Shown here piece by piece: positions 8,387 through 53,890 of a stretch of DNA of 64,000 bases. Numbering within the stretch: position 1 is the first letter of the stretch; each line of letters opens with the position of its first letter. The stretch spans positions 11,842,001-11,906,000 of the forward strand of contig OZ076410.1 in assembly GCA_964187785.1 (NCBI GenBank), in the 5' to 3' direction. Below the pieces are notes generated by a model, which ran no database searches, was not told the DNA's origin, and was given only the letters and a program-made list of their open reading frames with translations. The stretch comes from Amphiscolops sp. MND2022 (taxonomy: Eukaryota). The position numbers and the translations under genes were made by a program.

Positions 8387-8616
8387 GGACTGCTACTCTC
8401 CCGAGTAGCTGTAATTTCAATTTTATTTTTGTGCCGAGTAACGAAATAGCTATTTCCTATGTAAAAGAAAGAAGCACGCACAAGTTTTATTAATGTTTAG
8501 TATATTTCCACACGCATTGAATAAATAGGATCCATGTGTAATAATATGATGTACGAAAATTATCAGTACGAAAATCTAACGCAACACACACTCAAAAAAT
8601 GGAGTTAGTATTTAGC

Positions 8617-18652: not shown

Positions 18653-18809
18653 CTCTGCGGGTGAGAAAAGGACGTGGGGGCAGCCAAAAAACAAGGATGA
18701 TGGAAGATAAGAAGATTGAAATTAGGAAAATCAAAGGAAAGTTGAGGGAATGCAAGAAGGGGGTGTAAATCGAGGATAAAAGGGATTGCAACAGAAATAA
18801 AGGAATAGG

Positions 18810-18826
18810 CCCACCCAGGAGCGCCA
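18810..18826 (-). promoter_or_regulatory. Element 1 primer binding site
   Basis: TGGCGCTCCTGGGTGGG begins 1 nt after the 5' LTR; cognate tRNA not identified. Confidence 0.75.
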
Positions 18827-18827
18827 A

Positions 18828-23012: not shown

Positions 23013-23028
23013 CTAAAACATACACGAC

Positions 23029-23513: not shown

Positions 23514-23547
23514 TACACGACCACTAGTAGGAGGTACAGGGTTGTGC

Positions 23548-36179: not shown

Positions 36180-37754
36180 TGTCGCACGCATGGGTGAAAT
36201 TTGTTTATTAGTTTTAATCTGTCAAGTCCTTGTTTGCATTTTACAAGGTACTATCTCGCGACGGTTCTGTTATTGATTTAACAAGTATAAGTCCCAACAA
36301 ATAAATTAGCAACTTACTGATAAAGGGGTGCCTTGCGTGTACGTGCGAACAAAGGAAATTGCGTGAGTCGCGCAAGGCGGTGTTTGTAAATGAGCTTCCC
36401 GTTTACTGAAAATGTATGGTGAATAAATATGTTTAATTACGAATGAGTTGAGAATATTGAAAGTGAACAATTTCTGGACATAGCAATATTTCTTTCAATT
36501 GTTACAAATCTCAGATTAATAAAGATTACAACTTCACTTTACAAGAAGAAGTAATATAACTTTTACAATTTATCATTTAAGAAAATGAAACTATTTACAA
36601 ATAATAAGAATTTCCCTTTTTCTTCGGAAATTTTTTTCTCAAACAAAATTTAAAAATCCGTACTATTTTAAACGGAAGAGTTTTGATTTAGATGTCTCTA
36701 TTCAGTAGAAAGTTGAATAGCATTAAGACTTTTTCATAATATGACACTTTAAAACTTCAATCATCCCTTTTCTTATGTGAGTTTATGTAACTTCAACCTC
36801 ATAGAAATTTAGTTCTAATAAGAATAGTCTAAGCTAAAGTTTGGTCAACCGCAGAATTGAAATCAGCGGAAAATAGTCTAAGTTAAGGTTTTGGAAACCG
36901 CCGAGTTTAAATCAGCGGAAAATAGTCTAAGTTAAAGTTTTGGAAACCGCCGAGTTTAAATCAGCGGAAAATAGTCTAAGTTAAAGTCTCAGAGAGAGTG
37001 AAATCTCTACTGAAAGGTCTAAATAGTCAGACTCACCAAACCGGAGACGAAATTGAAGAGAAATTTCTAAGTTAGAAATTTCTTGTAAGGGAAGATTGGT
37101 TCTGGAAGTTGAAGTTAAATCAAGGATGAGTGGAGAAATATTCCAAGATGCAAGGGTATGATCAAAAGAGAATTATTGGATCTGAGTTATTAAGCAAGAA
37201 GTTTTGTTGAGTTAAATAGAAATCGGAATTGAAAGTGAAGGCGAGAAATAGACTTTCTAAGTCTGAAGGGGAAGATAATAGTAAAGGGAGAGGAAAGGGG
37301 GTAAAGTAAGAAAGAAGAGCAGGGGTGAGGGGAGAGAAGTGGAAGAGAAGAGAAGAGAAACGAGAGCTATTAAGTTTAAGCTCTGTCCGTTTCGATAAGT
37401 GAATGAATCTCCTCGCCTGCGTTGGCCGTATATATACAGCCAAGCATTTCTTATCGTGTGCTGCGTAGCAGGCATGGTTTACATGCCACCAATCATAGCT
37501 GTTTTCGTATTTCAAATATACGCGGTATAATATAGAATTCTTCACTTGTGCAATTCCTTTCTCGTCACAGTACTTCATCATCATTATTTCCACGTTATGG
37601 CCGCCGCCTTATGGCCGCCATCTTTATCTACAACTCTCTCCCCCATAAACAAACGTTAGTTCTAGTTCATGTTTGTTTCTGTATTTGTTAGTTAAATATA
37701 GACTGCACTTTAGCACCTAATTATGTTTGTTAAAGCGTTAGTCATAACGCGACA
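36180..37754 (-). repeat. Element 2 3' LTR (1575 bp)
   Basis: Direct repeat of 52316-53890 at offset 16136; one substitution seen (36653/52789). TATATATA at 37429-37436; AATAAA on the minus strand at 36204-36209. Confidence 0.96.
36823..36987 (-). repeat. 3.3 x 49-bp tandem repeats in element 2 LTR, each with a stem-loop (also 52959-53123)
   Basis: Units start at 36823, 36872, 36921, 36970; the minus strand forms CCGCUGA-UUUAAAC-UCGGCGG. Confidence 0.85.
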
Positions 37755-37790
37755 GCTCACCCCCTGGCAGGGTGAAAGAAAATAAATGAG

Positions 37791-38723
37791 TTATGGGTCA
37801 GACTGAAAGGAGGGGGAGTTATGTAGCGCGAGTGACTTAGGGGAAGGTTCTTTAAATTTGATTCTAAATATTATAGAGTCATTGTTTAGGAATGCTTCTC
37901 TGAAGTTGACAAGTAACTTCGTATGAGGGATGAAGTCTTCTTTGAGGAGGTTCGGGTGCGTGTAGAGATTGTGAAGGGTATCTTCGTGGTTGTGGGGGTT
38001 GATTGGGAAAAGTGTGGACCACTTGTTGCCTTCGTCCTTCTGATCAAGGATTTCGACTTCTACTGTTTTATCAAAGGGCCATGTTTGTGGGTGAGTGAAG
38101 TCGCTATAATGAAGTTCACAGCTAATAGAAGAGTGGGTCCCACGGAAGATGTTTATCCCGTAAGGGAATATTCTGAAGGAAATTTTGCAGCCTGATAGGT
38201 ATGTTGGGTAAATAGGGCTCGCGAAGCTGTTTTTGATGTTGTGAAACGGATCGTCTGGAGAGGTCCTTGCTTTTCGGTAAAGTGTGGAGAAGGCGGAAAC
38301 TTGCCAAGTGATAAAATCTTTACCGTTCTCTTCAATCTGGCTGCTGAGGAGGGAGCTTTGGTGTTTGATTGTCGCTCGAAAATCGAAGATAGTGACTTCC
38401 AATTGTTGACGTTTATCTCGTGCCTCTTCGATTGAGGTACATAGCAGTTTGATTCGGTTTTCTAACTTCTTTTGGGGTTGATTAATGTCCGTTAAAGGGA
38501 AGGACTTTCGAAGCGGTGTGCTTTTTGTTCCCTGGTTATAGGTACTAGTTGATTTCTCCCATTCACTAATCCACATATTTAGTCTTTCCACTCCTTCGAG
38601 GTTTGCATGTTCTTCTTGATCGTTTTCTTCAGGCATGGGTGGCCAGTCGGGGTTAGGGTTCGGTAGGTAGGGGTTGTGTTTTGGGATGAAGGGGGTGGCA
38701 TGTGGGTTTAATTTTTGGCTCAT
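37791..38723 (-). CDS. PAM2 motif - coiled coil - TRAF-C/MATH domain protein (310 aa), element 2 accessory gene
   Basis: N-terminal SQKLNPHATPFIP (PAM2 LNxxAxxFxP); coiled coil; FITWQVSAF...SPIYPTYLSGCKISFRIFPYG...GTHSS...WPFDKTVEVEILDQ...FLNNDSIIFRIKF parallels TRAF-C (SPPFYT..GYK.CLR.Y.NG...GTHLS...WPF...VT..LLDQ). No RING or zinc fingers. Confidence 0.85.
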   Translation of the reverse strand: MSQKLNPHATPFIPKHNPYLPNPNPDWPPMPEENDQEEHANLEGVERLNMWISEWEKSTSTYNQGTKSTPLRKSFPLTDINQPQKKLENRIKLLCTSIEEARDKRQQLEVTIFDFRATIKHQSSLLSSQIEENGKDFITWQVSAFSTLYRKARTSPDDPFHNIKNSFASPIYPTYLSGCKISFRIFPYGINIFRGTHSSISCELHYSDFTHPQTWPFDKTVEVEILDQKDEGNKWSTLFPINPHNHEDTLHNLYTHPNLLKEDFIPHTKLLVNFREAFLNNDSIIFRIKFKEPSPKSLALHNSPSFQSDP

Positions 38724-39301
38724 TGTGCAGATATGGATCTTAAGGGAACTGTCAGCCGCTGTCCCTTCAGTGCAGGGTTCTCAATAGTGCATTCTTGTCT
38801 TTTGTTGTCCCAAAAGACGATTTTCCAGGTTGAAAACTGTGGGAGTAGAGAATACTTTAGGTTCGCGTTAAATCTAGGTTTTTTAACGTATCTGGCTCTT
38901 CTAGTGAAGTATTCCCTTTTATGTTGCTTCTGTAAGGGTGCTTCATCGGCTATCTTGTTGTTCCATTCATAATAGTGTTTTTGTGGTGTGTTTCTTCTGA
39001 TGTCCTTTCCACCAAATCTAGGAGGATGTTGTGCGGACGGGATTGGTGGTATTTCTCCTGTGAATGACAAAGGAAAGGGGAGTTGGTCGGATGGCGTAGG
39101 TGTGAAAGTTGGAGTTGGAGATTTTGAGGGTGATGAAGGGACCGTTGAGTCAGGAGGGTCTGGAAGAAAGGTAATTGTTGTAGACGAGTCTGGTGTCAAA
39201 AAGTCTGAAGGAGATAGTGGTTCGATTTCTAGGTCACTTTCTGGGATAGGATCCAGGGTATCGTCGTCCAGGCTTGGTAGGTCGAATAGTGGTTCTAGAT
39301 T
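38720..39301 (-). CDS. ATG-less 193-codon exon: acidic/Pro-rich N-part, Arg/Lys-rich segment, small beta-rich C-part
   Basis: The frame opens exactly at tttattagtttacttttag|AAT (39301); no in-frame ATG; its stop overlaps the TRAF ATG (ATGA). Confidence 0.7.
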   Translation of the reverse strand, partial: NLEPLFDLPSLDDDTLDPIPESDLEIEPLSPSDFLTPDSSTTITFLPDPPDSTVPSSPSKSPTPTFTPTPSDQLPFPLSFTGEIPPIPSAQHPPRFGGKDIRRNTPQKHYYEWNNKIADEAPLQKQHKREYFTRRARYVKKPRFNANLKYSLLPQFSTWKIVFWDNKRQECTIENPALKGQRLTVPLRSISAQ

Positions 39302-39347
39302 CTAAAAGTAAACTAATAAATGAATGAACTTGAAAATGTTTTTGGCT

Positions 39348-41495
39348 TTATATTGGAGCTACGAAGCTCTGTACTGAGGGATAAAGTGATTCTTCCTTTT
39401 TCTTCAGTGCTTGGAGTTCTACTTCTTTTCCATTATCTTCAATTTTCGCGTTTTTATCTTCAACGCTATCCTCGTAAGGGGCCCGCGGGGTGAATACAGA
39501 AGTTAAAACTGAGGTAAAGAAAAGATTGTACGAAGCACTGAGCAATGTTTTAGTGAAGCTCAGTGTATTACCTGTAAGGTGACGAAGTTCAAAGTATCGG
39601 AAGACGAGTACCGTGATATCTATTACGAACTTAATGAAAAGAAAGGCGCCAAAATACGCGCCGCAAAGTTCTAGTACGTAAGATATACTTCCGAATGTTT
39701 CAAGGAACTGATTTTTGAAGTAACCGGGTGATATCATGCCGTCAACATAAAAATCGGTACGGGGTGCATAATACGCGAATGATTCGGGTCCACTATGGGC
39801 CATTGAGGGTGTGATGAGCTCTCGTGAGAACTTCTGGAGGGCGTTGCGAGACGCTGCGCTGATGAGGATTTTGTCCCAAAATTCTGAGAGTTGTTTAGGC
39901 GTGTACATTCCCGCGTCTTGTGAACCAGGGAAGGATCTAGTAATCATTGGTTGTATGTCTTTGGGTCCGAAGATAGCAGGTCGGTCGCGATGTTCGGGTG
40001 AAGGAGTGAGGGTAAACCAGGAGTCTTTGTCTTCCATATCCAATTGAAAGAGGTTCTTAATGCGATCGCTGCAATTTTGGGCGTTCGCGTTAGGATAGGT
40101 CTGTCGGGTGATTGGGTCCACGAAGGCAACCACTCCTTTGTAGAAGATGGGTATGCGGTCGTAGCATCGGTTCATCGTGTGAAGAGGTGAGTGGGATTCC
40201 GGACAGTGGTAGAGCCATGCGAGGCTGCCATCTGTGTTCAGGAACATAGAGCGATTTCCCGTGAGCATGTATCCGGCGAGGCGAGGATTTTCCATTGATA
40301 ACATCAAGATAGTGAGGATTTGAGTTCGTTCTTGTTCACATTGAGCTTTGAGGAGTTGGATTTCTGAGGCTTCGAGGAGACGAGTGCTCTCAAAGAAGAG
40401 ATAATCAAGCTTTGTCCCTTGGTGTAACTCGTAATCCATGTTGAGGTAATGAGGTGTATTAGGGTTGGGGTCGCTCGGGCCTCGAAAGAGGTGGAGTCGG
40501 CCATTACCAGAACCATCTTCGGGTGAATAGTATTGTAGTTTAGATGTCTCTCCCATGGAGATGCCGAGTCGTCTGCCGGACGTCATGTCGAAGCCAGCAA
40601 GTTGGATTGAAACGTACAGGGATTCGTAGTTGGTCGGGTATACATCGTCTGGTTTGTTGCAATACTTTTGTGGTCTGTTGTAGACTTCGAATAAAAATTT
40701 GGTAGTGGAGTCGTTGCCGCTTACGATATAATAGTTAGATCCGTGTTTGATCATGTTCACGATTTCTTTCCTATGTACTGCAAGCACGCAATTATCGGGC
40801 TCCGCCCATGTGTAGGCGTATGGGTCCAGTGACGTCGTTTCGCAACCTAGTTGTTCTAAGGGGCAGGGAAGGACCATCTGAAACGGAGTCAGGACTTTTC
40901 CATCTCGAGTTTTGACTGATAATTCAGCATCTTGGATGTGAGATTCGAATGTTTCTCTTTTGATCCAGCCACCTGTCTTGCATTCATTTCGGGTATCTGG
41001 GTCGCGTACACCGTCCCAACTCTTTCCGTATTTGGCGTTTCTCGTCTGTACTTGTTTCACTCCTTTCTTAAATTTGAGGGGTTGTCCATGGATTATGACT
41101 TCTTTGCCTTCACCCATTGCCTTGCAGGTTTCGGGTGACAGGGAAAGATCGCTGGTGATTCCGTCGTGTAGGATTGACATACTGGAGTGGTCGTGATAAC
41201 CACTATGCCATTCTTCACTCTGATGTTTCACACGGCACATAGTGGCGTTGATAGTGCGGCGGAAATGTTTAGTGTATAACGTTACGCTCGCACGACTTAC
41301 CTCTAAGTTTTCAGGTGCCACATTGCATTGTTCAACTTGATTCAATGCGTAGAGTTTATTTTGGGTCATTTCGCCGCAGTCGAAATGAGTTACTCGCAGT
41401 TTTTTAGCAACGCTAGCGAGGTTTGGCGTTGGACGTTGTAATATCACAACGGGCGCGTAATGGGCGCATAAAAAGAGTAAGTAAAATAATTTCAT
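39348..41495 (-). CDS. env: Element 2 envelope glycoprotein, class III (chuvirus G / herpes gB-like) (715 aa)
   Basis: Signal peptide; THFDC...YALNQVEQC, CRVK..EWHSGYHDH, CPLEQLGCETT...YTW.EPDNC, QCEQER cysteine pattern; C-terminal TM; acceptor aatttcag|aaATG directly upstream. Confidence 0.78.
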   Translation of the reverse strand: MKLFYLLFLCAHYAPVVILQRPTPNLASVAKKLRVTHFDCGEMTQNKLYALNQVEQCNVAPENLEVSRASVTLYTKHFRRTINATMCRVKHQSEEWHSGYHDHSSMSILHDGITSDLSLSPETCKAMGEGKEVIIHGQPLKFKKGVKQVQTRNAKYGKSWDGVRDPDTRNECKTGGWIKRETFESHIQDAELSVKTRDGKVLTPFQMVLPCPLEQLGCETTSLDPYAYTWAEPDNCVLAVHRKEIVNMIKHGSNYYIVSGNDSTTKFLFEVYNRPQKYCNKPDDVYPTNYESLYVSIQLAGFDMTSGRRLGISMGETSKLQYYSPEDGSGNGRLHLFRGPSDPNPNTPHYLNMDYELHQGTKLDYLFFESTRLLEASEIQLLKAQCEQERTQILTILMLSMENPRLAGYMLTGNRSMFLNTDGSLAWLYHCPESHSPLHTMNRCYDRIPIFYKGVVAFVDPITRQTYPNANAQNCSDRIKNLFQLDMEDKDSWFTLTPSPEHRDRPAIFGPKDIQPMITRSFPGSQDAGMYTPKQLSEFWDKILISAASRNALQKFSRELITPSMAHSGPESFAYYAPRTDFYVDGMISPGYFKNQFLETFGSISYVLELCGAYFGAFLFIKFVIDITVLVFRYFELRHLTGNTLSFTKTLLSASYNLFFTSVLTSVFTPRAPYEDSVEDKNAKIEDNGKEVELQALKKKEESLYPSVQSFVAPI

Positions 41496-41562
41496 TTCTG
41501 AAATTCTTCAGTCTTTGACAATCAATCAGGAAAAATGTTTTTTATAGATATGTGGATCCTCG

Positions 41563-41817
41563 GTAAGGCCGTAAAAAGGCAAGCCGTAATATCAAACCGG
41601 CAGCTTAGCTGGCACGACACTAAGCGGAGGTTAAAATTTTATAGTAGTAACCTCACTACTATTGGAAAGTGCCTTATGGAAAGATTTCTGTTTTTGTTTA
41701 AAGTATAGGATCCGGAGTAAGGCCGTAAAAAGGCAAGCCGTAATATCAAACCGGCAGCTTAGCTGGCACGACACTAAGCGGAGGTTAAAATTTTATAGTA
41801 GTAACCTCACTACTATT
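41563..41817 (-). repeat. Two identical 101-bp direct repeats (41563-41663, 41717-41817) with H-type pseudoknot and hairpins
   Basis: Minus strand AUAGUAG-U-GAGGUUA-CUACUAU-AAAAUUU-UAACCUC, followed by GCUUAG/CUAAGC and GCCG/CGGC hairpins. Confidence 0.85.
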
Positions 41818-41874
41818 CAAAGAGTGCCCGAAGAAAAATAGTAAAAGAAACTAACTTCAACCATTTATGAAGGT

Positions 41875-42219
41875 TCAGCTGTAGTTATCACTGATTGATT
41901 TTAGACTGGGAGAGTGTTTGTTACGTCCCTGAGCGTCGAGAAAATCGATTAACTTGCTGAGGAGATGAAGGGTCAGAGGGTGAACGTGATCTAAGTAAGC
42001 GATCTGCCTGTATTCGGTTAGCGCCTTCGCAAGATCTGCTGCTTCTGTCGAGTCTGTGGCGACAGGGATGAGCCAATGTCCCGTTTGATGTGGTCGGAGG
42101 CTGTGGAGTTCAATCTGAAGTGCGGGGGCGCTCTCTTTCCAGGCTATAGAGAGGATCTCAAGAAGTGTGTTTGTTTCCGGGTGACGCCAGAGGAATTTGA
42201 GTTGTATTTTAAACATCAT
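41875..42219 (-). CDS. Element 2 small accessory ORF D (114 aa from ATG)
   Basis: ATG overlaps the end of ORF C by 11 nt; shares a motif with ORFs A-C. Confidence 0.65.
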   Translation of the reverse strand: MMFKIQLKFLWRHPETNTLLEILSIAWKESAPALQIELHSLRPHQTGHWLIPVATDSTEAADLAKALTEYRQIAYLDHVHPLTLHLLSKLIDFLDAQGRNKHSPSLKSISDNYS

Positions 42220-42604
42220 AGGTCTCAACTAGGGTGTGAAGATATTTGATTCTAACCTCTTCTTCAAAGGGGTTAGTAACTAGGGTGATATCCATAAAAT
42301 AAACCAAGTCGTCGAAAGCCTTGTCTTTAAGGACAGCGGGGTGTTGGAGTATGTATTGTTGGAACGATAGGAATAGGTAGGCGTATTCCTTGGACCCGAA
42401 GTGAATAGGGAAGAGGACTAGTGCTTCTTTGTCTTCTGGTGTGAGTATACGGACTTGTATCGCCGAGGTAGTGATCTCGTAAAAGATTGACTGTATTTCG
42501 TATTCACCCGTGAGTTGTATAGGTTTCCAAGGAACCGGAGGTTGAAATTGAGTGTGGAAGTAGTACTTATTTCCTCGAAATACGGCAACTGCGGGAGAGG
42601 ACAT
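42209..42604 (-). CDS. Element 2 small accessory ORF C (131 aa)
   Basis: ATG fused to the ORF B stop (TAATG). Confidence 0.7.
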   Translation of the reverse strand: MSSPAVAVFRGNKYYFHTQFQPPVPWKPIQLTGEYEIQSIFYEITTSAIQVRILTPEDKEALVLFPIHFGSKEYAYLFLSFQQYILQHPAVLKDKAFDDLVYFMDITLVTNPFEEEVRIKYLHTLVETYDV

Positions 42605-42825
42605 TAAAGGACTGACTTGGCTCTTGTGAAGACTTCGGTAGGAGTGTTATTATATAGTAGACTCTCCAGTAGTGGGTAGATAGGTGATGCTGGCACACAC
42701 GTGTAGGTTTCACTCACTTCCTCTGCGATTGCATAGGCTTGTATGATTATGTTCTGTGTTGAGGGTTCCTTCTGAATGTCAGTGATCTGGGAAAGTCGGT
42801 TGTCGATTTTGAATATTATGATCAT
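42604..42825 (-). CDS. Element 2 small accessory ORF B (73 aa)
   Basis: First of three coupled ORFs; shares a motif with A, C and D. Confidence 0.6.
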   Translation of the reverse strand: MIIIFKIDNRLSQITDIQKEPSTQNIIIQAYAIAEEVSETYTCVPASPIYPLLESLLYNNTPTEVFTRAKSVL

Positions 42826-43099
42826 CAGTGAGCTGTTATGCCTTTTGGTGTGTGTTCATCAAACATAGCAAATCTGAGAATGGAATCATCAGTTATTTCA
42901 TTGCGTTTTTGGGGGTATTTGTAGAGGAGGGAGGATTACGACTTCATGAGTCGTCGTAGTAAACTAGACAAATGTCCGGGTAGGATATTATATTTTATAT
43001 CTGATGACTAGGTTGAATAGTGATATATATATGGTTTGCTTCAATCGATAATTATAAATAATTTGCATGACTTTAAATAAATCGTATTTGTATTTAGGG

Positions 43100-43773
43100 A
43101 TGAGCAACAACTTCTCCGATTATTACGAAGAATCTTCAACGGATGAGGAGCAAGGAGGTGGCCCTTCAACTTCCGCGTCCACTACATCTGCGGGGTCCTC
43201 CTCTACTGGTGTAGTGTCGGCTAGTGGGACGTCTTCGTCTTCTGTGAGGCCTTCCGTGGCTGGGCAGTCGTCGTCCGCTGGAGCTCGTGGGGGCTCGTCT
43301 ACTACTTCATCATCTGGAGCCCGCGCTGCACCTGCGTCTTCTGGGTCGCTTGTGGGTACTGTAGCCCCGCAGGCTGGGTCTGTCACCATGGCTCAGGGGA
43401 GTTTGGAGGACTCCAGCCTCCAACACTTCTTGAATCTCTTTACTATGAGAGTATAGACAGGCTGGAAAATTGGGCGAATATAGCGAGTTCTCTTCGGGGA
43501 ACACCGGGATTCGCTGTTCCTGTAGCGCCCATTCCTAACCCTTTGATTAGTTTCCTCCGGGCAAACTGGGGAGCCAGGTGGGAGGGAACTCTGCTGTCAC
43601 CCATAGGGGAGATGGTCATTTTCCAATTACGAGCATATATCCGTGGCTATGCTCAACTCACTGGTTTTGAGCGGGGACAGTGGATGCGTCTCTATTCTGT
43701 ATGGTCTATGCAAGAGCGGGCGGCTCAGCTGCGGAAGCTTGCCGAGAGGGGCGGTTTCCTGGAGATTGAGTAG
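43100..43773 (+). CDS. Internal antisense gene of element 2, split over two frames (acidic/Ser-rich N-part + globular C-part)
   Basis: ATG at 43100 after tgtatttag|; first frame ends at 43456; the -1 frame is open from ~43225 to 43773; one extra G in GGGG (43396-43399) would fuse them (MAQG-EFGGLQPPTLLESLYYE...); AATAAA at ~43900. Confidence 0.5.
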
Positions 43774-43938
43774 GCATTATTGCCTCTCATCTCCAGGAAA
43801 TACTTTATTTTTCTACGCTTTTGTGTTTGCTGCTTTTCGTAAGTTCCTTCTCGGGGTTGCACAAATTGTATAGATAAAAAGTCTAATAATAATAATAATA
43901 ATAAAGATAATATTTTTCAAATAAGCGGTAATATCCGG

Positions 43939-44325
43939 CTAGGAGCTAGGCGAGGAGATAGTAGAACAGCAGAATAAGTCTTTTTGGGTGTTAGGTAATG
44001 AAGGTTGTAGGTCAGGTATCAGGGTAGGCATGTAGGATAGGAGTTCCTCTAGGATAGGGACATGGTGGGTGACGGCATAATAGGCTAAGTGTTGATATAA
44101 GCGGGCGAAAGTAGGTGATTCTGGGTGTATATGAAGGTTAGATTTTCTAGGCGTAGGTTGTTTATGTGGGCTAGGATCTGGGTCGTTGGAGTAGAAACAA
44201 ATTCTAACTATTTTGTTTTTGTAGGTCCAGTAGATTTTAGTAATCGTAACCTGTAGGACTCCTAAGGACTGGGGTTCTCGCGGGACTTGCCAAGGTAAGT
44301 TTAGATAGACTTTATGGCACGCCAT
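43939..44325 (-). CDS. Element 2 small accessory ORF A (128 aa from ATG)
   Basis: ATG lies 7 nt after the stop of the integrase C-terminal frame; shares a motif with B-D. Confidence 0.65.
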   Translation of the reverse strand: MACHKVYLNLPWQVPREPQSLGVLQVTITKIYWTYKNKIVRICFYSNDPDPSPHKQPTPRKSNLHIHPESPTFARLYQHLAYYAVTHHVPILEELLSYMPTLIPDLQPSLPNTQKDLFCCSTISSPSS

Positions 44326-44332
44326 AGTAAGG

Positions 44333-44917
44333 TTATTCTTTGTAACCAATTCTAGTCCTTTCACGAAGTATGGACTGTAGCGCTGGTTGATTGGGTTGTG
44401 CTCGCTGATAACGCGGATTTCTTTCTATTTGGCGGGCAACGGCTCTTCGTAATTCTTGCAAGGGAGTCGTTGACTTGGTAGAAGATGCCGGGGTGTTAGT
44501 TGGGGGTGCTGGAGTTGGTTGACGTTGAGTTAATGTCAGGATAGGGGTTGCTGCGTTTTGAGGATGTGATGTAGAAGGCTGATCGGGGGTCTTGGGAGTT
44601 GACAACAACTGATTTTCTGGAGAGATGATACCAGAGTCTGTGCTCTGGGGGGTTTGCGTTCTTTTGCGGGCAAGTATTTGGTTTTGTTGATTCCGTACTG
44701 GCAATATGCAGAGGTCTCCGAGTTTTTGTGGTTCTGAAACATTAAGTTGTTCAATTCTTCCTTTGACAAGATTGTTATAAAAATCCGTGTCTCCACGGTG
44801 GGGAGTAGTGTATTCTTCGATAAGAGGCGGGAGTGTTTCTTCTTTAGGAAAGTATTCTATTAGATGATTCCTATGTACAGTTCGGAGATTCTCGGGGTTT
44901 TGATCTTCTATTATTTG
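44333..44917 (-). pseudogene. Frameshift-separated C-terminus of element 2 integrase
   Basis: After GPFTVTKRITNTT the -1 frame reads QIIEDQNPENLRTVHRNHLIEYFP..., the usual continuation of a Gypsy integrase; open to TAA at 44333. Confidence 0.8.
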
Positions 44918-47900
44918 GTTGTATTTGTAATTCGTTTGGTAACCGTAAAGGGTCCTAGTCGCAGTTGTTGGAGTTTTTGGCTTTTGGAGAGATCTTTTCT
45001 ATGGTTTTCTAGCAGAACCTTTTGTCCTATGTTGAGGTGGTTTCCAAGTTTAAATCTGTTCCTGTAGGCGTGTGATTGAGCTGTTTGTTTTCTGCACTTT
45101 TCGTATGTGGATGAGTAGACCTTTTTGAAGGCTGTTTCTCGTTCCAATAAGCTTTGTGATAGTTGTGGTCGTAATAGTCCATTTAGTAGTTCGTTTTTGA
45201 CTTGGTTTTCGCTATGGCAATGAGGAGGTAATCCTTGACAGAATTGTGATTTGCAGTTCTTGTTTTTGTTCCTGTAGAGTCCCAGCTTCAGACTCATAGG
45301 TATCTGTGGTTTGTTGCAAAACACTATCTCGTAGGGGGTCTTTCCAGTTGTGTAGTTGACGCTTGTGTTGTGGGCGAATGCAAATTTGGCAGCTAGTTGG
45401 GCCCAGTTGTTTCCTGATTCGTTTAAGAAGTTTCTCCAGTATCTTGCAATGTGTTGATTTTGAGTTTCTACTTTGCCATTTGTCCAGGGTGAGTGTGCGG
45501 TTCTTGGTCGAAGTGTAATGCCAAACTCTTTAGCCCAATTGACGAATTCAGTGTTCACGAAAGCTGTTCCTCTATCATGTACGATAGATTGAGGGATGCC
45601 ATAGTGCATAATCCATTTTTCCATCGCGTTGATTGTAGATTGTGCTCCTGTGTCTCTGACTGGGTATGCCATCAGGTAACGTGAGAAGGCGTCGATGATC
45701 AGAAGGCAATGTGAATTTCCACGACTGGGAGGATTGAGTGGTCCTTTGTGATCAATGTGGATGGTTCTGAAAACTTGAGTTTCGGTTTCGCAGTCTTCCA
45801 GTGGGACTTCGTTGTTTCTCCGTTGTTTGGATTTGTTAGATTGGCAGCTAACACAATCTTGTGTGAGGGCACAGATCCAGTTGTGCATCCCTGGCCAGTA
45901 GTAAAATCTCTTAGCATTGAGGAAGGTCTTTTCTGCTCCCATGTGGCCGCCGAGGTCGTTGTAATGTCCCATACGAAAGCAAGCTAAAAATAGAGAGAGG
46001 GGTAGACAGATTCTCAGATTCTCGTCTGTTGGGTCATCAGTTGGCTCGTTATAACAAAGGAGGTTTCCTTGGCCTTCTATAGATAATCTGTCGAATTGCT
46101 GAAAGTAACGCATGAGGCCTTTTGAGTGTTGTAACTCTGGTGATTTTGGTTCGGGTTTGTTTCCTGTTCTTACCCATTGTCGGACTACGCTGAGTACCGG
46201 GTCATTAATTTGTTCTTGTAAGATCGTTGTAACGTTTAGTTCTACTTCTTTGGATAGTTTATCAAGTTGTCTGACGAGTTCCTGTGTTGGTGTCTTTTGT
46301 TTTTCAGTTGAATTTGTAGGTAGATCGAGGTGTTCTATTGCCTTTGCGTTTTTGGGAAGACCTGGGTTACGCGCGATGAGATCTTCTGTGTTGAGCTCGT
46401 AGTTGGTCTCGTTAATTTCATGACTCTGATTGTCTGTGAGGGCTTCGTCATCCGTATCACTGTTGATGGAGCTGTAAGTGTTTTGTGATAAATCCGATGT
46501 GCTATCCCGTGTTCCAGACCTGATTCTTAGTTCTTCGAATTTTCCAAGTTCTCTTCCAGCGTCGAGGCAACTCTGTGCTGACTCTACTTTCGGCAGGTTA
46601 GGTTCCTCGTAGATAGAGTTAACTGTGAAGTTTTTCCCATCATTTTGGAGATGAAGTACTTTCCGTTCTTTTCCCTTCTCGTACAAGATGGGGTAAAAGT
46701 CGTTCTTGGATGTCTCTTCATTTTCTTCGTGTTTGATTTTGTAGTGTACTTGGGTTCCATGTTCGTCGAAAAAGTGTATGTCAGTTGGGATGACTTTGTG
46801 ACTGAGTTGATGTTTCTTGTGTTCCTCGATGGAGACGTTTCGACTGAGTATATCAGGGAAGGCTAGGTTGCTTCCTGGAGTCCAAATTATCTTGAGATTC
46901 GGGAATTTAGATATAATTACTTGGTACCGAAAAAAACGGGGTGAAACTTGTCCCTTTCTTCCCCAGAAATAAAGAATCGGCTTGTGATCGCAGTATAGGT
47001 AGATGGGGAAGGGAGATCCGATGATGTAGTGTTCATACGTCTGAAGAGCTGAGACTATGCCACATAATTCTCTGTGTAGTGTGGACATCTTTTGTTCTTC
47101 CTTTGCGAAAACTCTTGAGTTGAAGGAAATGATCCGTTTCCCTTCTGGGAATTGTTGGATGAGGATACATCCTGTCCCAACGTTTGACGAGTCGACGTGT
47201 ATGTGAAAGGGGTATTTTGTCGAGGGTATTGCGAGCACTGTGTCTTCGGTAATTCTTTTCTTTATTTCCTGGAAAAGGTCTTCGTGTTCTTGGTTCCAGC
47301 AAAAATTTGTATCTTTCTTGGTGAGTTCGTAAAAAGGTCGACTATCGACGTGAAGATTCTTGATGTAGCAGCTATAGAAGCCCAAAGCTCCTAAGAAGCT
47401 TTTCACTTCGGTTTTGGTCTTTGGTGATTTGAGATTGTGTAGGTCTTTTACTCGTTTTGCTACGGGTTGTATTCCTTCGGCTGCTATCACGTGTCCCAAA
47501 AACTTGACTTTCCTTAAGAAGAAGAGTGTCTTATCTGGTGCTGCCTTGAGTCCGGCTTTCCGCAGTAAGTTATGGTATTCTTGAATTACCGTGAACATTT
47601 CTTGTTTGTTTTTGGCTTGCATCAACGTGTCGTCGATGTATGTAATTGCCTGTTTCCTTTTGATGAGGGGTTCGAAGTGGATAGTCATCATTCTGCTAAA
47701 GAAGCTTGGTAATCCCTTGAGTCCATAGAATCCCCTGGTGAAGGTGTATTGTTTTCCGCCAATGATGAAGCTGGTGAGTTTTTGCGTGGGCTCGTCTAAT
47801 GGGACTTGGTGAAATGCACAGGAGAGATCACTTACTGAGAAGATGTTTCCATTTATTAGTGTCATTATGGTTTGGATCGGTTCTAAGGGCCAGGAATAAT

Positions 47901-49836
47901 TTGTTAGATCTGTCACCGAGTTTAGATATCTCGCATCTATGATCAGCTTGACATAGTCATGTTTTGGTTGTAGTATAATAGGATTCACAAATAAGGATCC
48001 CATTTCTTCATCGTCGCCCATTTCTCTGATGATATCAGCGTCTTTGAGTTGTGTGAGTAGCTTCTCTAGCTTTTCTCGTAGGTGAAGTGGTACTTTGCTG
48101 GGTCTCTGTCTCTTTAGAATTGCTCCAGGTTCTAGTTTAATGTTAAATTTTTGTCTGGTTTTCCCTACGTCAAATTTGTGTTGGGAGTATACATCTCTTG
48201 CGTCCATTAGTAAGTCTATTAGGAGAACCAGTTCTTCGTCTGTGAGGTCTGAGTAGCGAAAGTCGAATTCTTTAATGTATCGCACTGCTTCTTTATTTTG
48301 ATACTGAAGGTAGTACTCGATCAGTCGTTCGTTGTCTTCTTTTGGCCTGAAGATTTTAAATTGCTCATCGCAGGGTGGTTGACAGGACTTTGCGTCGCTT
48401 GTGAAGTCTGTCTCCAGCTCTCTATGTTTGAGATGAAATTGCTCGGAAAATTGTTGTATCTCATCTAGTACGTATTCGGGGTCTCCTCTTGTAGTCATGG
48501 CATAGACATCTAGTTCGTTTCTTGTATAAATTCGGAGTTGTAATTCTGAGTATGCAAATACGTCTTGAATGAGTTGAGTGACGTCTTGCCATTGGAAGTC
48601 TTCTAGCTCTGAGGCTTCCCGTAGCATGGATATAGTCTTGATGCCGCTCATTTTGGCGTGTGCTTTTAGAGTTTCGAGAGATTGAACTAGCAATTGTGGG
48701 TCAATCTTGTCTTTTGATTTTGCTTTCGTAATCAGAACATATATAAATCGTTTCAGAGTTTCGTCCCAGTAGGGTATGATTTCTCCTTTCTGTGGTTTCT
48801 GTTTTGCGCATGTATCCTTAAGTGAAGGTATTTTCGTTAGGATTTCTTTTGAGAAACCTTTGGCTGGTTTTAGGTCGGCCGGGACGAAGATGATGATAGG
48901 GTCTGGTCTGCTGAGTATTGTTTTCGAGTTTCCTCCTTCTATTCTGAGGCAATCGTTCATATCTTGTGAAGGGATGGTAGAGTGTAATAGGAAACAGTCG
49001 TTGTATTCTTCGTTTTCGTTTAGGATAGCATAGGCGAGTTCTGTCGGGTTTCTAATTTGGTATTTCGGAATTTCTTGGTCTAATACGTCAAGCATTGAGT
49101 ATCCGATAGTTCCTTTTACTAAAGTGATTGTATGGTTTTTGTTGTTTTCCATGACGATTGGTAAAGTCTTCTCAAATCGTGTGCAGAGGACATTAATGAA
49201 GTTAAGTCCAGTAGAAACTGCCTTCCTGTTCGGTAGGAACGTAGATCCAGGAGGAAATGAGTTATTAGTGTTTTCCGGTGCGAATTTGTAACATCTTGTC
49301 GTCTTTGGTTCGATATACATTGAGTGAGGAATTCGAACTGAGAGAATTTGTGATAGATAGGGGTAACATTTGTTGAGTTGTAGGCTACCATAGCAAAAAG
49401 TATTTATAGGTCTTTTGAGTTCTATGCCAGGAAGATCAAAGTGTATTTTGTTAACTTGTTCTTGGCAGAAATTCATTCCAAGGAGGTTTTGGGTTTTCAT
49501 CTCTGTTATCCAGACTGTTAATGGGAAGTTATGTTGTCCATCGGAATCGTAGTAGAGTTTGAGGGTGATGTATCCCATCATAGGGATGATCTGCCCAGAG
49601 TAGTTCCGTGTTGTGTTATTGCTTCTACTAAGTTCTAGGTCTTGTTGAAACTGGCAAAGTTCTCTAAAGGTCCTGTAGTTGATGATTGAAGATGTTGCCC
49701 CAGTGTCTAGTAGAAATTCGATTTCTAAGCCACTATCTTTTTGTGGGTCTCCGGCAGCAAAATAATAAAGATTAAGACTAAATTTTAGTGGGGCTGTGCT
49801 GCTGTTACGATTTTTCGGAGACCTTAGTAGTTTAAA
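44911..49836 (-). CDS. pol: Element 2 pol: protease-macrodomain-RT-RNase H-integrase (via -1 frameshift)
   Basis: FLLDTGATSSII (~49700, upstream of the listed ORF start); TARG1-like domain ~48525-48915; YIDD; HVDSSNVGTGCIL; HHCC; HIDHKGP / HDRG / KVETQN. Confidence 0.93.
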   Translation of the reverse strand, partial: FKLLRSPKNRNSSTAPLKFSLNLYYFAAGDPQKDSGLEIEFLLDTGATSSIINYRTFRELCQFQQDLELSRSNNTTRNYSGQIIPMMGYITLKLYYDSDGQHNFPLTVWITEMKTQNLLGMNFCQEQVNKIHFDLPGIELKRPINTFCYGSLQLNKCYPYLSQILSVRIPHSMYIEPKTTRCYKFAPENTNNSFPPGSTFLPNRKAVSTGLNFINVLCTRFEKTLPIVMENNKNHTITLVKGTIGYSMLDVLDQEIPKYQIRNPTELAYAILNENEEYNDCFLLHSTIPSQDMNDCLRIEGGNSKTILSRPDPIIIFVPADLKPAKGFSKEILTKIPSLKDTCAKQKPQKGEIIPYWDETLKRFIYVLITKAKSKDKIDPQLLVQSLETLKAHAKMSGIKTISMLREASELEDFQWQDVTQLIQDVFAYSELQLRIYTRNELDVYAMTTRGDPEYVLDEIQQFSEQFHLKHRELETDFTSDAKSCQPPCDEQFKIFRPKEDNERLIEYYLQYQNKEAVRYIKEFDFRYSDLTDEELVLLIDLLMDARDVYSQHKFDVGKTRQKFNIKLEPGAILKRQRPSKVPLHLREKLEKLLTQLKDADIIREMGDDEEMGSLFVNPIILQPKHDYVKLIIDARYLNSVTDLTNYSWPLEPIQTIMTLINGNIFSVSDLSCAFHQVPLDEPTQKLTSFIIGGKQYTFTRGFYGLKGLPSFFSRMMTIHFEPLIKRKQAITYIDDTLMQAKNKQEMFTVIQEYHNLLRKAGLKAAPDKTLFFLRKVKFLGHVIAAEGIQPVAKRVKDLHNLKSPKTKTEVKSFLGALGFYSCYIKNLHVDSRPFYELTKKDTNFCWNQEHEDLFQEIKKRITEDTVLAIPSTKYPFHIHVDSSNVGTGCILIQQFPEGKRIISFNSRVFAKEEQKMSTLHRELCGIVSALQTYEHYIIGSPFPIYLYCDHKPILYFWGRKGQVSPRFFRYQVIISKFPNLKIIWTPGSNLAFPDILSRNVSIEEHKKHQLSHKVIPTDIHFFDEHGTQVHYKIKHEENEETSKNDFYPILYEKGKERKVLHLQNDGKNFTVNSIYEEPNLPKVESAQSCLDAGRELGKFEELRIRSGTRDSTSDLSQNTYSSINSDTDDEALTDNQSHEINETNYELNTEDLIARNPGLPKNAKAIEHLDLPTNSTEKQKTPTQELVRQLDKLSKEVELNVTTILQEQINDPVLSVVRQWVRTGNKPEPKSPELQHSKGLMRYFQQFDRLSIEGQGNLLCYNEPTDDPTDENLRICLPLSLFLACFRMGHYNDLGGHMGAEKTFLNAKRFYYWPGMHNWICALTQDCVSCQSNKSKQRRNNEVPLEDCETETQVFRTIHIDHKGPLNPPSRGNSHCLLIIDAFSRYLMAYPVRDTGAQSTINAMEKWIMHYGIPQSIVHDRGTAFVNTEFVNWAKEFGITLRPRTAHSPWTNGKVETQNQHIARYWRNFLNESGNNWAQLAAKFAFAHNTSVNYTTGKTPYEIVFCNKPQIPMSLKLGLYRNKNKNCKSQFCQGLPPHCHSENQVKNELLNGLLRPQLSQSLLERETAFKKVYSSTYEKCRKQTAQSHAYRNRFKLGNHLNIGQKVLLENHRKDLSKSQKLQQLRLGPFTVTKRITNTTK

Positions 49837-51278
49837 GGGCGAAAATCGGAGACAGAGTTCACCGAGTAGTCAGTTTCGAGAAACTGTACTGTGTTGGATC
49901 TTCCCATGTCATTAGTTTTAGGGAACCTTTGATCGTAAGTTTGAGTTGGGGTGTTTGGTCTTTCGTTTCTGTTTAGTGGTCTGTGAAAGACTGAGTTATT
50001 CCTTGGTGGAAGAGGCTGTATGTTGCGATTAAAGGAGCTAGACTGGTCTCTGTTGAAGTTGAACGGAGATCTTGCTCTTTGGGGTCCAGGGGAAACACTC
50101 CTGGAGTTGTTAGAATTGTTTAGGAAGGGTCTTCTCCCTTCTTGTGAAAATCTTCGGTTACCAGGATTGAGTCTTGTATTCGTAGGTCGGCGTTCTGGGT
50201 TGAAATTTTTTCTTTGTGGTCTATCGTATTGATTCCAGGCAGGATTTGACTGCATAGCTCCAGCCAGTGCTAGTTGACGTGCCACAGCCATATGTTTTCT
50301 GATTTCTGAATCTGGTAATCTTGGTAGAAATCTAGAGCCATGTTCAGGTCCAGTTCTTTTGTTGTAGTCGTTGGTGAATGTTATTCTTCTTTCTGGGTTA
50401 GCTTCGTTTTGAACCTTCTTCACTTCTTCATCTCTCATCTTCTTTCTGCACCAGTTAGGTGTGTGCCCATTTGTCCGGCAGTAGCCACAGAATCGTGTGG
50501 CCATCCTTCGACCTGTAGCATTAGGGTCTACAGTTTTCTCTACTGCGTTGATTGTGTTATTCATCTGTTCTTTGATTTGTAGTTTGATTCCCTTCAGGTC
50601 GTCTCGCATTTCTTGTATGAGTGGGTCCGAATGTGATTCTCCGCCAGTTAGGGCGGTAGTTACCGTGTAGGAGAGGTCTTTGTTTATTACAGCTTGGGAG
50701 AATTGTTCCCAGGTTGCATTCGGGTGATCCATTAAATATTCGTGTGCCTTTTCTCTCAGTTTTGGAGGTCTTAGGCCTCTCAGTGAGTAGTCGATGCACC
50801 TTTGTCTTCTTTGTCGGTCTTGTGCTGCTCTTTCTGCGTTTCTGTCGTTTTGTGCGACGCCGGCAAGATCATCTGGCCAGCCTTTCCCCACAACAATTTT
50901 GATTCTGTGTAGAAAATTCTTTATCTCTTCTCCATCTCTTCTGGTGACATGTTCTGCTTCCATTCTGTGTCTGAATTTATTTCGGCCATCTGCGAATCTT
51001 GTGATGAACCTTTCTCTGATTTCTTGCCAGGTGTTAGCGTCTGTGATACTTGTCTCGAACCACTCCGCTGCTGGTCCTCTTAGTAGTGTAGCAAAGTAGG
51101 ATTTTCTCCTGAAGTTGTAGTCGTCAAGTGCTGCTCCGTTTGCTGGGGTATCACCATGAGAGAAACGGAACTTCTTTTCAATTAGCTGTATAAATTGTTC
51201 AGGATCTTGATCTGGGTCTGTTCCTGTGAATTGGTCTCTGCCGAGGTCTGGATAAGCCAAGTAATTTTGCGCAGCCAT
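49824..51278 (-). CDS. gag: Element 2 gag (484 aa)
   Basis: Capsid-like region (F.TLLRGPAAEWF); CCHC knuckle CGYCRTNGHTPNWC; basic C-terminus. Confidence 0.9.
   Translation of the reverse strand: MAAQNYLAYPDLGRDQFTGTDPDQDPEQFIQLIEKKFRFSHGDTPANGAALDDYNFRRKSYFATLLRGPAAEWFETSITDANTWQEIRERFITRFADGRNKFRHRMEAEHVTRRDGEEIKNFLHRIKIVVGKGWPDDLAGVAQNDRNAERAAQDRQRRQRCIDYSLRGLRPPKLREKAHEYLMDHPNATWEQFSQAVINKDLSYTVTTALTGGESHSDPLIQEMRDDLKGIKLQIKEQMNNTINAVEKTVDPNATGRRMATRFCGYCRTNGHTPNWCRKKMRDEEVKKVQNEANPERRITFTNDYNKRTGPEHGSRFLPRLPDSEIRKHMAVARQLALAGAMQSNPAWNQYDRPQRKNFNPERRPTNTRLNPGNRRFSQEGRRPFLNNSNNSRSVSPGPQRARSPFNFNRDQSSSFNRNIQPLPPRNNSVFHRPLNRNERPNTPTQTYDQRFPKTNDMGRSNTVQFLETDYSVNSVSDFRPLNY
49830..49836 (-). 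promoter_or_regulatory. -1 frameshift slippery site U_UUA_AAC (element 2)
   Basis: Gag ends CCT TTA AAC TAC TAA; the -1 frame continues into the protease. Confidence 0.8.
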
Positions 51279-52294
51279 TGTGAGCTATTGAGATTATAAA
51301 GGATAGAAGATGAAGCAAAGAACAATAAGCCAAAGACTCTGTGAGGTATGATACTCTTGGCTTTTGAGAATAACAGCAAAGAGTTAAAGTAAAAATTGTT
51401 TGTACTATGATTCTAATAGTGATAATTATTAGACAGGTCTGACAAATCATAAAATCCTTAATACACTGCTAGCAAAAATGAAAATAGCACTTCTCAGTCG
51501 AAGTTAGGCTCATTTCCGGTATTTCGTACTCTGATTCCAAAGTTTAGGGGATACTTACAAATCCCACTAGTGTTGAGATTATCGTAAAAAGGGTAGTTCG
51601 GGGTATACTAATCCTCCGAGTTAACCCAAAGAAAACCCATGAAGAGTACAGTCAGTCCACTAGGTCTTTCATCCGCTCGTTGAGCCTTTCTTTAACTTTA
51701 GGAAAATAACTACGGCTAGTTCACAGAGGGAGTTACTCTCGTCTTTAGGATTAAGTGCGTGGGGCCCAGATCACTATCATGCAATCACTTGGGTACTATC
51801 ACTAGAATACTAGGTTTCCCACTCGGAATGCTACATAGGTTCCAAGATACCCACTGGGCTCACGGCCTTCAAACAGCCTCCGAGGAGACCTAGGCGGGCT
51901 TTTACTTAATTTGTGTCCGTCCGGACTAGAGTGTATTTCCCAACTGTGCCTTTAAATAAAGCGTATAGAGTCAGTTTCATTCTTGTTTAGGACTGATTGT
52001 AATCTCATAGTATTTTCGTAAAGGTAAATCATTTCTAACAAATGGTTTTGGGGATTGAAAGAAAAAGAGTAGTGCATAAACTCTTCCGAAAGCTGTTAGG
52101 CTGGAGAGATTCTGTTAGAGTATTTACTAGCAGTTTTACGATTTATATAGATTAGAGAAGCCACATATTGAGGCAGTAGGAGAAAGAAGAAAATTAGAAG
52201 TAATGTTAAGAGAAATAAGTAATTAACCCTTACTTCTGAGAGTAGGGATTCTAACAGATAGCTCATTTACTTCTCTATTACAAGAGAAAAAGGT

Positions 52295-52312
52295 GCCTCA
52301 CTGGTCGCACCA
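52295..52312 (-). promoter_or_regulatory. Element 2 primer binding site
   Basis: TGGTGCGACCAGTGAGGC begins 3 nt after the 5' LTR; cognate tRNA not identified. Confidence 0.7.
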
Positions 52313-52315
52313 GTT

Positions 52316-53890
52316 TGTCGCACGCATGGGTGAAATTTGTTTATTAGTTTTAATCTGTCAAGTCCTTGTTTGCATTTTACAAGGTACTATCTCGCGACGG
52401 TTCTGTTATTGATTTAACAAGTATAAGTCCCAACAAATAAATTAGCAACTTACTGATAAAGGGGTGCCTTGCGTGTACGTGCGAACAAAGGAAATTGCGT
52501 GAGTCGCGCAAGGCGGTGTTTGTAAATGAGCTTCCCGTTTACTGAAAATGTATGGTGAATAAATATGTTTAATTACGAATGAGTTGAGAATATTGAAAGT
52601 GAACAATTTCTGGACATAGCAATATTTCTTTCAATTGTTACAAATCTCAGATTAATAAAGATTACAACTTCACTTTACAAGAAGAAGTAATATAACTTTT
52701 ACAATTTATCATTTAAGAAAATGAAACTATTTACAAATAATAAGAATTTCCCTTTTTCTTCGGAAATTTTTTTCTCAAACAAAATTTACAAATCCGTACT
52801 ATTTTAAACGGAAGAGTTTTGATTTAGATGTCTCTATTCAGTAGAAAGTTGAATAGCATTAAGACTTTTTCATAATATGACACTTTAAAACTTCAATCAT
52901 CCCTTTTCTTATGTGAGTTTATGTAACTTCAACCTCATAGAAATTTAGTTCTAATAAGAATAGTCTAAGCTAAAGTTTGGTCAACCGCAGAATTGAAATC
53001 AGCGGAAAATAGTCTAAGTTAAGGTTTTGGAAACCGCCGAGTTTAAATCAGCGGAAAATAGTCTAAGTTAAAGTTTTGGAAACCGCCGAGTTTAAATCAG
53101 CGGAAAATAGTCTAAGTTAAAGTCTCAGAGAGAGTGAAATCTCTACTGAAAGGTCTAAATAGTCAGACTCACCAAACCGGAGACGAAATTGAAGAGAAAT
53201 TTCTAAGTTAGAAATTTCTTGTAAGGGAAGATTGGTTCTGGAAGTTGAAGTTAAATCAAGGATGAGTGGAGAAATATTCCAAGATGCAAGGGTATGATCA
53301 AAAGAGAATTATTGGATCTGAGTTATTAAGCAAGAAGTTTTGTTGAGTTAAATAGAAATCGGAATTGAAAGTGAAGGCGAGAAATAGACTTTCTAAGTCT
53401 GAAGGGGAAGATAATAGTAAAGGGAGAGGAAAGGGGGTAAAGTAAGAAAGAAGAGCAGGGGTGAGGGGAGAGAAGTGGAAGAGAAGAGAAGAGAAACGAG
53501 AGCTATTAAGTTTAAGCTCTGTCCGTTTCGATAAGTGAATGAATCTCCTCGCCTGCGTTGGCCGTATATATACAGCCAAGCATTTCTTATCGTGTGCTGC
53601 GTAGCAGGCATGGTTTACATGCCACCAATCATAGCTGTTTTCGTATTTCAAATATACGCGGTATAATATAGAATTCTTCACTTGTGCAATTCCTTTCTCG
53701 TCACAGTACTTCATCATCATTATTTCCACGTTATGGCCGCCGCCTTATGGCCGCCATCTTTATCTACAACTCTCTCCCCCATAAACAAACGTTAGTTCTA
53801 GTTCATGTTTGTTTCTGTATTTGTTAGTTAAATATAGACTGCACTTTAGCACCTAATTATGTTTGTTAAAGCGTTAGTCATAACGCGACA
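52316..53890 (-). repeat. Element 2 5' LTR (1575 bp)
   Basis: Direct repeat of 36180-37754; TATA at 53565-53572 with an Inr-like sequence ~30 nt downstream. Confidence 0.96.

Follow-up and report, generated by a model that had tools for sequence, protein, structure and literature searches.

A TARG1-type macrodomain with a rebuilt pocket in the pol of a Ty3/gypsy element from Amphiscolops

The window analysed here is a stretch of 64,000 nucleotides from Amphiscolops sp. MND2022 (GenBank assembly GCA_964187785.1, contig OZ076410.1, forward-strand positions 11,842,001 to 11,906,000), and all positions are counted from its first letter. It contains two long terminal repeat (LTR) elements, called A and B, both on the minus strand and both embedded in AT-rich, repeat-rich DNA. 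The pol of element B carries a macrodomain of the TARG1/OARD1 type whose pocket has been rebuilt, and this copy is probably a pseudo-enzyme, judging by analogy with the human protein, that is kept as a folded module of pol. Element B and the parts of its pol are as follows.

36180..53890, minus strand: element B, an env-bearing Ty3/gypsy element with LTRs of 1575 base pairs (bp) that differ by 1 mismatch, and ATTT duplicated at both flanks
44911..49869, minus strand: pol open reading frame (ORF) of element B, 1652 amino acids, the frame stopping just past an SH3-like stretch
49462..49731, minus strand: aspartyl protease domain (Pfam PF13975, E 1e-5)
48973..49452, minus strand: dUTPase-like beta domain separating the protease from the macrodomain (weak structural match)
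48523..48957, minus strand: macrodomain of the TARG1/OARD1 type with a remodelled pocket, in frame (pol residues ~305-449)
46903..48072, minus strand: reverse transcriptase (RT; YIDD) and RNase H (Pfam PF00078, PF17917/9)
45370..45990, minus strand: integrase, zinc finger and core (Pfam PF17921, PF00665)

The macrodomain and its place in pol

A first-pass annotation of this DNA, made from its letters alone, had placed a TARG1-like macrodomain at 48525..48915, between protease and RT. The peptides behind that call lie in one open frame (pol residues 324-449), and comparisons of sequence and of a predicted model confirm that 48523-48957 encodes a TARG1/OARD1-type domain in frame within pol, starting about 40 nucleotides earlier than had been proposed. 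The position relative to protease and RT was also right, but the dUTPase-like domain that intervenes had been missed. In a phmmer search of the PDB, only TARG1/C6orf130 entries fell below E 0.7, and these account for five of the nine sequences listed (E 1.1-1.4e-11). A profile match to TARG1 reaches E 6e-30, compared with 3.5e-4 for the next family, while Pfam does not detect the domain even at E 1.

The macro fold, on which the first call had been made to depend, is present in the predicted structure. A single-sequence AlphaFold model (mean predicted local distance difference test score, pLDDT, 60.5) retrieved TARG1 first in Foldseek (E 4e-10, template modelling score, TM, 0.68-0.76), and VIA-align gave 4j5q (TARG1) as the best match, with Z 15.9, a root-mean-square deviation (rmsd) of 2.5 and 142 residues aligned, against a Z of ~14 for DarG. 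TARG1 structures overall reach Z 15-16 and rmsd 2.4-2.5 with ~140 residues of the model aligned, and the best match in the ESM Atlas is an OARD1 cluster (score 0.92). Human TARG1/OARD1/C6orf130 (PDB 4J5Q, 4J5R, 2L8R) has the fold, Lys84, Asp37 and Gly43 in common with the element B domain at 25% identity. Unlike the human protein, the element B domain sits within a retroelement pol, carries Glu at both 123 and 125, has His32/Cys33 and Pro118 replaced and has lost the GCG loop. DarG (5M3E, 5M3I), SCO6735 (5E3B) and yeast Poa1p (6LFR) belong to the same macrodomain class (Z 13-14) but are only 15-19% identical to it, below TARG1, and gave no sequence match with a single query; DarG, like the element B domain, is without the Asp. 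Among the 13 ORFs of elements A and B that were scanned, no Pfam match to a DarT-like ADP-ribosyltransferase was found beside the macrodomain. The base composition of the domain (GC 0.41, and 0.40 at third codon positions) equals that of the rest of pol and so gives no sign of a recent foreign origin.

Next to the macrodomain, the ~160-residue stretch that separates it from the protease folds weakly like a dUTPase (model pLDDT 74.8). All 38 of the 38 Foldseek rows shown for this model are dUTPases, at a weak best E of 8e-4 and TM of ~0.4; a PDB sequence search came back blank and the ESM Atlas gave nothing above 0.79. This dUTPase-like domain is also found in sister elements that have no macrodomain. 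Retroviral dUTPase is itself a mobile accessory domain, a captured nucleotide-handling domain that occurs at different pol positions. It offers a parallel to the macrodomain capture with a different fold, and element B seems to carry a domain of that kind too.

How the domain is likely to be translated can be read from the start of pol.

49824..51284, minus strand: gag ORF of element B (Pfam PF03732), overlapping pol, -1 frame
49830..49836, minus strand: TTTAAAC heptamer, candidate -1 frameshift site within the gag/pol overlap

Because gag and pol overlap, with a -1 shift of frame, across TTTAAAC, the macrodomain is probably made within Gag-Pol. The heptamer fits the pattern of a -1 slippery site, and no significant stimulatory RNA structure was found 3' of it (fold z +0.54).

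Gain and recurrent capture of pol-borne macrodomains

Relatives of element B were collected with its linker-RT-RNase H region, which found 164 proteins. Of the best 120 of these 164, 14 have the macrodomain, in every case located between protease and RT. A tree was built from 50 RT-RNase H regions, those of 48 hand-picked stored proteins and of the two window pols, and in it the 14 bearers and the pol of element B form one side of a branch (93/89) that is nested among relatives without the domain. The spacing from protease to RT agrees with this: among proteins with a match to each of these two domains, it is 421-446 amino acids for 9 bearers and 232-342 for 39 non-bearers. Within the lineage the domain tree tracks the RT tree, if weakly (81/67). 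Together, the RT clade, the spacing and the trees show one gain of the macrodomain in the element B lineage, by a single insertion at a domain boundary, and indicate that the domain is dispensable for the lineage as a whole. The lineage can thus be used as a natural series of elements with no domain, an intact pocket or a rebuilt pocket, 64-98% identical in RT, which is testable with isolated domains.

A wider search of 1.84 billion proteins, made with a profile of eight domains, gave 2632 matching proteins. Of these the best 150 were examined; nine of the 150 match the window pol domains, and 63 of the longer ones were scanned with Pfam. Besides fragments of the A and B types, these include P0049, in which the macrodomain stands between RNase H and integrase, P0155, in which it precedes the integrase, and P0067 and P0096, in which it follows it; all four keep Lys84, Gly123 and Asp125. 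At least six element groups have pol-borne TARG1-like domains, which between them occupy at least three positions. A mixture-model tree of 51 rows scatters P0049, P0155, P0067 and P0096 over four places, three of which are starred branches shared with non-pol rows, although some of the non-pol rows (P0057, P0086, P0134, P0159) are likely to be fragments of elements. One origin for every pol-borne macrodomain was rejected (87 log units, p-AU 2e-5 in the approximately unbiased, AU, test) for a group that includes P0134 and P0159, which were added once the tree had been seen. On the strength of these positions, groups and trees, recurrent capture into Ty3/gypsy pol at large is supported.

Some of these proteins deserve mention in their own right. 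The P0049 domain nests among non-pol proteins that bear PAM2 motifs (98/95) and is probably a separate, host-derived capture. P0096 (1651 amino acids) is an LTR-element pol in the order RT-RNase H-integrase-SH3, followed by a TARG1-like macrodomain (Lys84/Gly123/Asp125) and then by a Tpt1/KptA-like domain (PF01885, E 3e-6); the RNA 2'-phosphotransferase-like domain and the macrodomain could form a writer-eraser pair in one pol. Other TARG1-like macrodomains are flanked by a DNA ligase domain on one side and a LIG3-type BRCT domain on the other (P0041, P0051, P0058, P0066 and others), and there are also fusions with NADAR (P0043), TBP (P0082), an HMG box (P0090) and PAM2 proteins.

The window itself contains a second domain of this family, in element A.

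4695..22506, minus strand: element A, Ty3/gypsy, with LTRs of 3679 bp that differ by 3 mismatches, and a CAGAC target duplication
14418..14846, minus strand: macrodomain of element A, TARG1-like, lying between the RNase H and integrase domains (TARG1 match E 8e-19)

The first-pass annotation had held that two distantly related elements carry the same domain family at different points, and this stands: the two pols are ~31% identical over RT-RNase H (computed via the 94%-identical P0002) and lie far apart in the RT tree. Its further claim of recurring acquisition holds more widely than was proposed, across the element groups described above, but it is left in balance for the A/B pair, since constraining the two macrodomains to group together was not rejected (p-AU 0.53) and a second tree gave a polytomy. 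We put slightly below even the chance that elements A and B share one capture, passed between elements or drawn from the same host gene source, rather than two unrelated captures. The constrained tree scores 0.99 log units higher, for a group that includes P0129 and was picked after the tree had been seen, and a 15-residue length of the aromatic-W-D hairpin is found in 19 of 20 A/B rows as opposed to 18 of 145 others. Against a shared capture, the free trees set A apart from B or end in a polytomy, both domains are long branches, which attract, they are only 28% identical (over 90 residues), and the tree set for the comparison lacked the host's own OARD1.

The rebuilt pocket and what the domain may do now

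Three codons, assigned by alignment to TARG1, are central to what follows.

48724..48726, minus strand: Lys codon at the TARG1 catalytic Lys84 (kept)
48607..48609, minus strand: Glu codon at the TARG1 Gly123 position (phosphate-binding loop 2)
48601..48603, minus strand: Glu codon at the TARG1 Asp125 position

TARG1 catalysis uses Lys84 and Asp125, and DarG keeps the lysine alone, as described in PMC9411070. In TARG1, G43E, I44E and G123E are each reported to abolish ADP-ribose binding and catalysis, and G123E to retain RNA binding (PMC5928194). The first-pass annotation had read Lys84 as kept, Asp125 as replaced by Glu and the GCG loop as lost, and the alignment agrees on all three, with ASE in place of the GCG phosphate-binding loop; the Glu at 123 had been overlooked. 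The HC motif is lost as well. Asp37 and Gly43 are kept, and position 44 is Phe, as it is in all 19 lineage domains, pocket-intact ones included. The window domain therefore has the same residue at the same aligned position as the human G123E mutant, which makes it probable that the copy is a pseudo-enzyme, although here Glu123 is natural, is fixed in an element clade and is joined by further changes in both pocket loops.

The distribution of these residues among relatives is informative. The 19 lineage domains aligned comprise 15 from long pols, that of element B included, and ~4 fragments placed by homologous flanks or tree position. Lys84, Gly123 and Asp125 are all kept in 14 of the 19, and Gly123 in 15. 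P0180 is without Asp125, P0164 keeps all three residues but has Lys43 and Glu121, and P0162 has Arg43. Glu123 and Glu125 occur together in the element B domain, P0001 and P0002, and Asp123 with Glu125 in P0020, and these four domains with an acidic residue 123 group as one derived clade, set on a long stem (100/100). The 145 other homologous domains have Gly123 in 140 cases and Glu123 in none, Asp125 in 136 and Lys84 in 142. Since Lys84 is near-universal, its retention in the window domain says little.

Element A gives a second case of pocket loss. Its macrodomain has Arg at 84, with the loop-1 glycines and Gly123 replaced and Asp125 kept, and in every member shown of the A family both loop-1 glycines and Gly123 are replaced. 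Residues on which ADP-ribose binding depends are missing from the macrodomains of both A and B, so neither is likely to be an eraser now. The first-pass annotation had proposed recurring selection; selection on the pocket can be seen in the pocket-intact sister families of element B.

Selection was assessed by comparing 3 pocket segments (40 sites) with the remaining 105 sites of the 145-residue domain. When the pocket-intact families P0160 or P0163 are compared with P0165, 12/40 pocket sites differ, against 64/105 and 72/105 elsewhere (p 0.001, 6e-5), and this pocket conservation fits a working eraser in the sister families. Between the element B domain and P0160, 29/40 pocket sites differ against 62/105 elsewhere, with no pocket conservation. 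From P0160, P0162 and P0163 the window domain differs at 61-63% of sites, compared with 36-38% in the flanks (p <1e-5); the same comparison in intact pairs gives p 1, 0.29, 0.14 and 0.001.

These patterns also bear on whether the window domain could be a neutral passenger, a slowly decaying in-frame insertion retained for no other reason than that the reading frame has to remain open. Sister elements do without the domain, and pockets have been damaged on separate occasions in the window clade, in P0164, in P0180 and throughout the A family. Among close copies, moreover, macrodomain substitutions are no more conservative than those in the spacer (mean BLOSUM 0.25 v 0.03, p 0.59). A passenger would not be expected, however, to show the pocket-specific conservation of the intact families or to align without gaps over 145 residues between the window domain and the 12 relatives compared. 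Nor does its variation match that of a spacer: the element B domain, P0001 and P0002 have no gaps and vary at 24/145 domain sites, under half the rate of the RNase H-integrase spacer (54/140, p 3e-5). We consider neutral passage improbable, and in these comparisons the fold of the window-clade domain is still constrained. The domain is nonetheless more variable than the flanking pol domains (24/145 v 24/290, p 0.014), and RT-RNase H, with 21/390 variable sites among the three copies, varies less than the macrodomain.

The history that we favour begins with an ancestor of the element B lineage that gained a TARG1-type ADP-ribosyl hydrolase domain with its pocket intact, inserted in frame at the junction of the dUTPase-like domain and RT. 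The domain would be made in Gag-Pol, probably by -1 frameshifting, and so would travel in the particle with RNA and complementary DNA (cDNA). In most families the pocket appears to be still under selection, most likely, going by TARG1 chemistry, for stripping ADP-ribose off element nucleic acid or proteins. TARG1 is described (bioRxiv 10.64898/2026.03.31.715305) as selective in removing ADP-ribose linked to the uracil and guanine bases of RNA, which makes the RNA or cDNA of the element an attractive substrate for intact domains. In the sub-lineage of element B the pocket has been rebuilt, with Gly123 turned acidic and the GCG loop and HC motif lost. If the human G123E result carries over, the window domain has most likely lost the ability to bind or remove ADP-ribose and remains in pol as a folded module without catalytic function, which on balance we think the better account.

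Several results weigh against this account. Lys84, Asp37 and Gly43 are all kept and residue 125 is still acidic, and DarG is described as working with the lysine alone (PMC9411070). The human protein in which G123E was tested is only 25% identical to the window domain, and the modelled loop 120-125 has pLDDT <50. The pocket-versus-rest contrast is not significant for the closer intact pair, P0160 v P0163 (p 0.14), and relative-rate tests for a faster window branch are mixed (p 0.002, 0.004, 0.07 and 0.30 in four trios), with RNase H also faster in one trio. Finally, the rebuilt pocket segments are near-invariant among the three close copies (1/40 sites against 23/105, p 0.005), which suggests a used surface; the same contrast against P0020 is not significant (17/40 vs 61/105, p 0.10).

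The last of these results would suit an enzyme of changed specificity, in which Lys84 and Glu125 carry out Schiff-base chemistry on ADP-ribosylated or other sugar-aldehyde nucleic acid without the glycine-rich pyrophosphate loop. Lys84 and Glu125 are common to the four domains of the derived clade, even to P0020, which is 54% divergent, and catalytic residues are described as varying inside this macrodomain class (PMC9411070). The weight of Lys84 is small, however, given how widely it is kept among homologues, residue 123 is acidic in all four members, and the domain is more variable than its flanks, so that we regard this possibility as unlikely. Less likely still than either this or neutral passage is ADP-ribose-independent RNA binding on the domain surface, aiding genome packaging or chaperoning. 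It would draw on the RNA binding that the G123E mutant retains (PMC5928194) and on the expected presence of the domain in the particle. RNA binding by TARG1 has been tied to the basic residues K50, R86 and R126 (bioRxiv 10.64898/2026.03.31.715305), where the window domain has Thr, Lys and Asp, and its net charge is ~+2, in contrast to +9 in the TARG1-like P0069.

A kept but non-catalytic module would have counterparts elsewhere. The main text of PMC10221186 describes recurrent loss of activity in macrodomains of alphaviruses and PARP14; as here, the domain is retained while catalytic residues are lost in several lineages, but those systems are MacroD-type domains of RNA viruses and host PARPs, and that main text mentions neither TARG1 nor transposons. 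Retroelements with captured macro domains are also known, since macro-domain ORFs occur in epsilon-like fish endogenous retroviruses (Basta et al. 2009, as cited in PMC4977317). Compared by description only, the fish domains are additional ORFs, whereas those of elements A and B lie in frame in Ty3/gypsy pol. We found no report of a macrodomain within Ty3/gypsy pol in the literature searched, which left subscription papers, Repbase/Dfam notes and supplements outside, and the word "macro" is absent from the main text of the errantivirus survey PMC13524379, whose supplements may list such elements.

Read from its residues, the element B copy speaks for a function that has turned over, not for an eraser role at present, and as probably not an active eraser it carries less weight of its own. 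A host defence based on ADP-ribosylation is a plausible force behind the captures. It may even be, though we hold this only tentatively and with more doubt than belief, that animal Ty3/gypsy elements have many times acquired TARG1-type erasers, at several places in pol, in response to ADP-ribosylation of retroelement RNA or cDNA by their hosts, with the domain acting as a particle-packed counter-defence and the pocket-rebuilt copies representing later stages of the conflict, as decoys or changed-substrate enzymes. If true, this would mean an undescribed ADP-ribose-based immunity against retrotransposons. The repeated capture of TARG1-type domains into pol, once beside a Tpt1/KptA-like domain (P0096), provides a testable case for nucleic-acid ADP-ribosylation acting on retrotransposons.

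Further features of the two elements

The remaining parts of element B are listed here.

52316..53890, minus strand: 5' LTR of element B, 1575 bp, 1 mismatch relative to the 3' LTR
36180..37754, minus strand: 3' LTR of element B, with the ATTT target duplication on both flanks
39348..41507, minus strand: env-like ORF of element B, viral fusion glycoprotein (Pfam PF24664, E 4e-30)
37791..38780, minus strand: accessory ORF of element B, MATH/TRAF domain and weak PAM2 motif (PF22486 E 2e-9, PF07145 E 0.05)

Element B can be placed in Ty3/gypsy by its LTRs, its target duplication and the order protease-RT-RNase H-integrase, and the env-like fusion ORF downstream of pol is a feature that it shares with errantiviruses. 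It resembles the env-bearing Ty3/gypsy errantiviruses described in PMC13524379 in gag-pol-env, LTRs, a fusion-type env and recent insertion, a likeness drawn from gene content. Both elements are recent insertions, with LTR pairs that are nearly identical and target duplications present. No tRNA gene was found in the window, and related DNA was confirmed neither among 49 pattern matches in JGI metagenomes nor among 6 in IMG/VR.

The accessory MATH/TRAF ORF sits downstream of env, just inside the 3' LTR, and would be another captured host-type domain in element B. Beyond the end of pol, sequence resembling the tail of P0002 runs on in another frame (44333-44998). The pol-env interval of ~2.8 kilobases holds short ORFs on both strands (43225-43773, plus; 43939-44424, minus) and a 110-bp direct repeat (41554, 41708); short ORFs of element B in 41500-44400 and 38720-39301 gave no Pfam match. 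Each LTR contains a 49-bp tandem repeat (36774-37036, 52910-53172).

Element A also has gag, a pol arranged as protease-RT-RNase H-integrase, and an ORF resembling env. This ORF (760 amino acids, 9880-12162, minus strand) has no Pfam fusion match and, by eye, shows a basic site followed by a hydrophobic stretch, unlike the env of element B; PDB sequence searches gave no match for the env-like ORF of either element. A JmjC-like ORF (335 amino acids; weak, Pfam E 0.02) lies inside both LTRs of element A (7201-8208 and 21334-22341, plus strand), antisense to gag-pol. Directly after element A, 23021-27599 is an exact tandem duplication of 2289 bp (100% identity), either a recent event or an assembly artefact.

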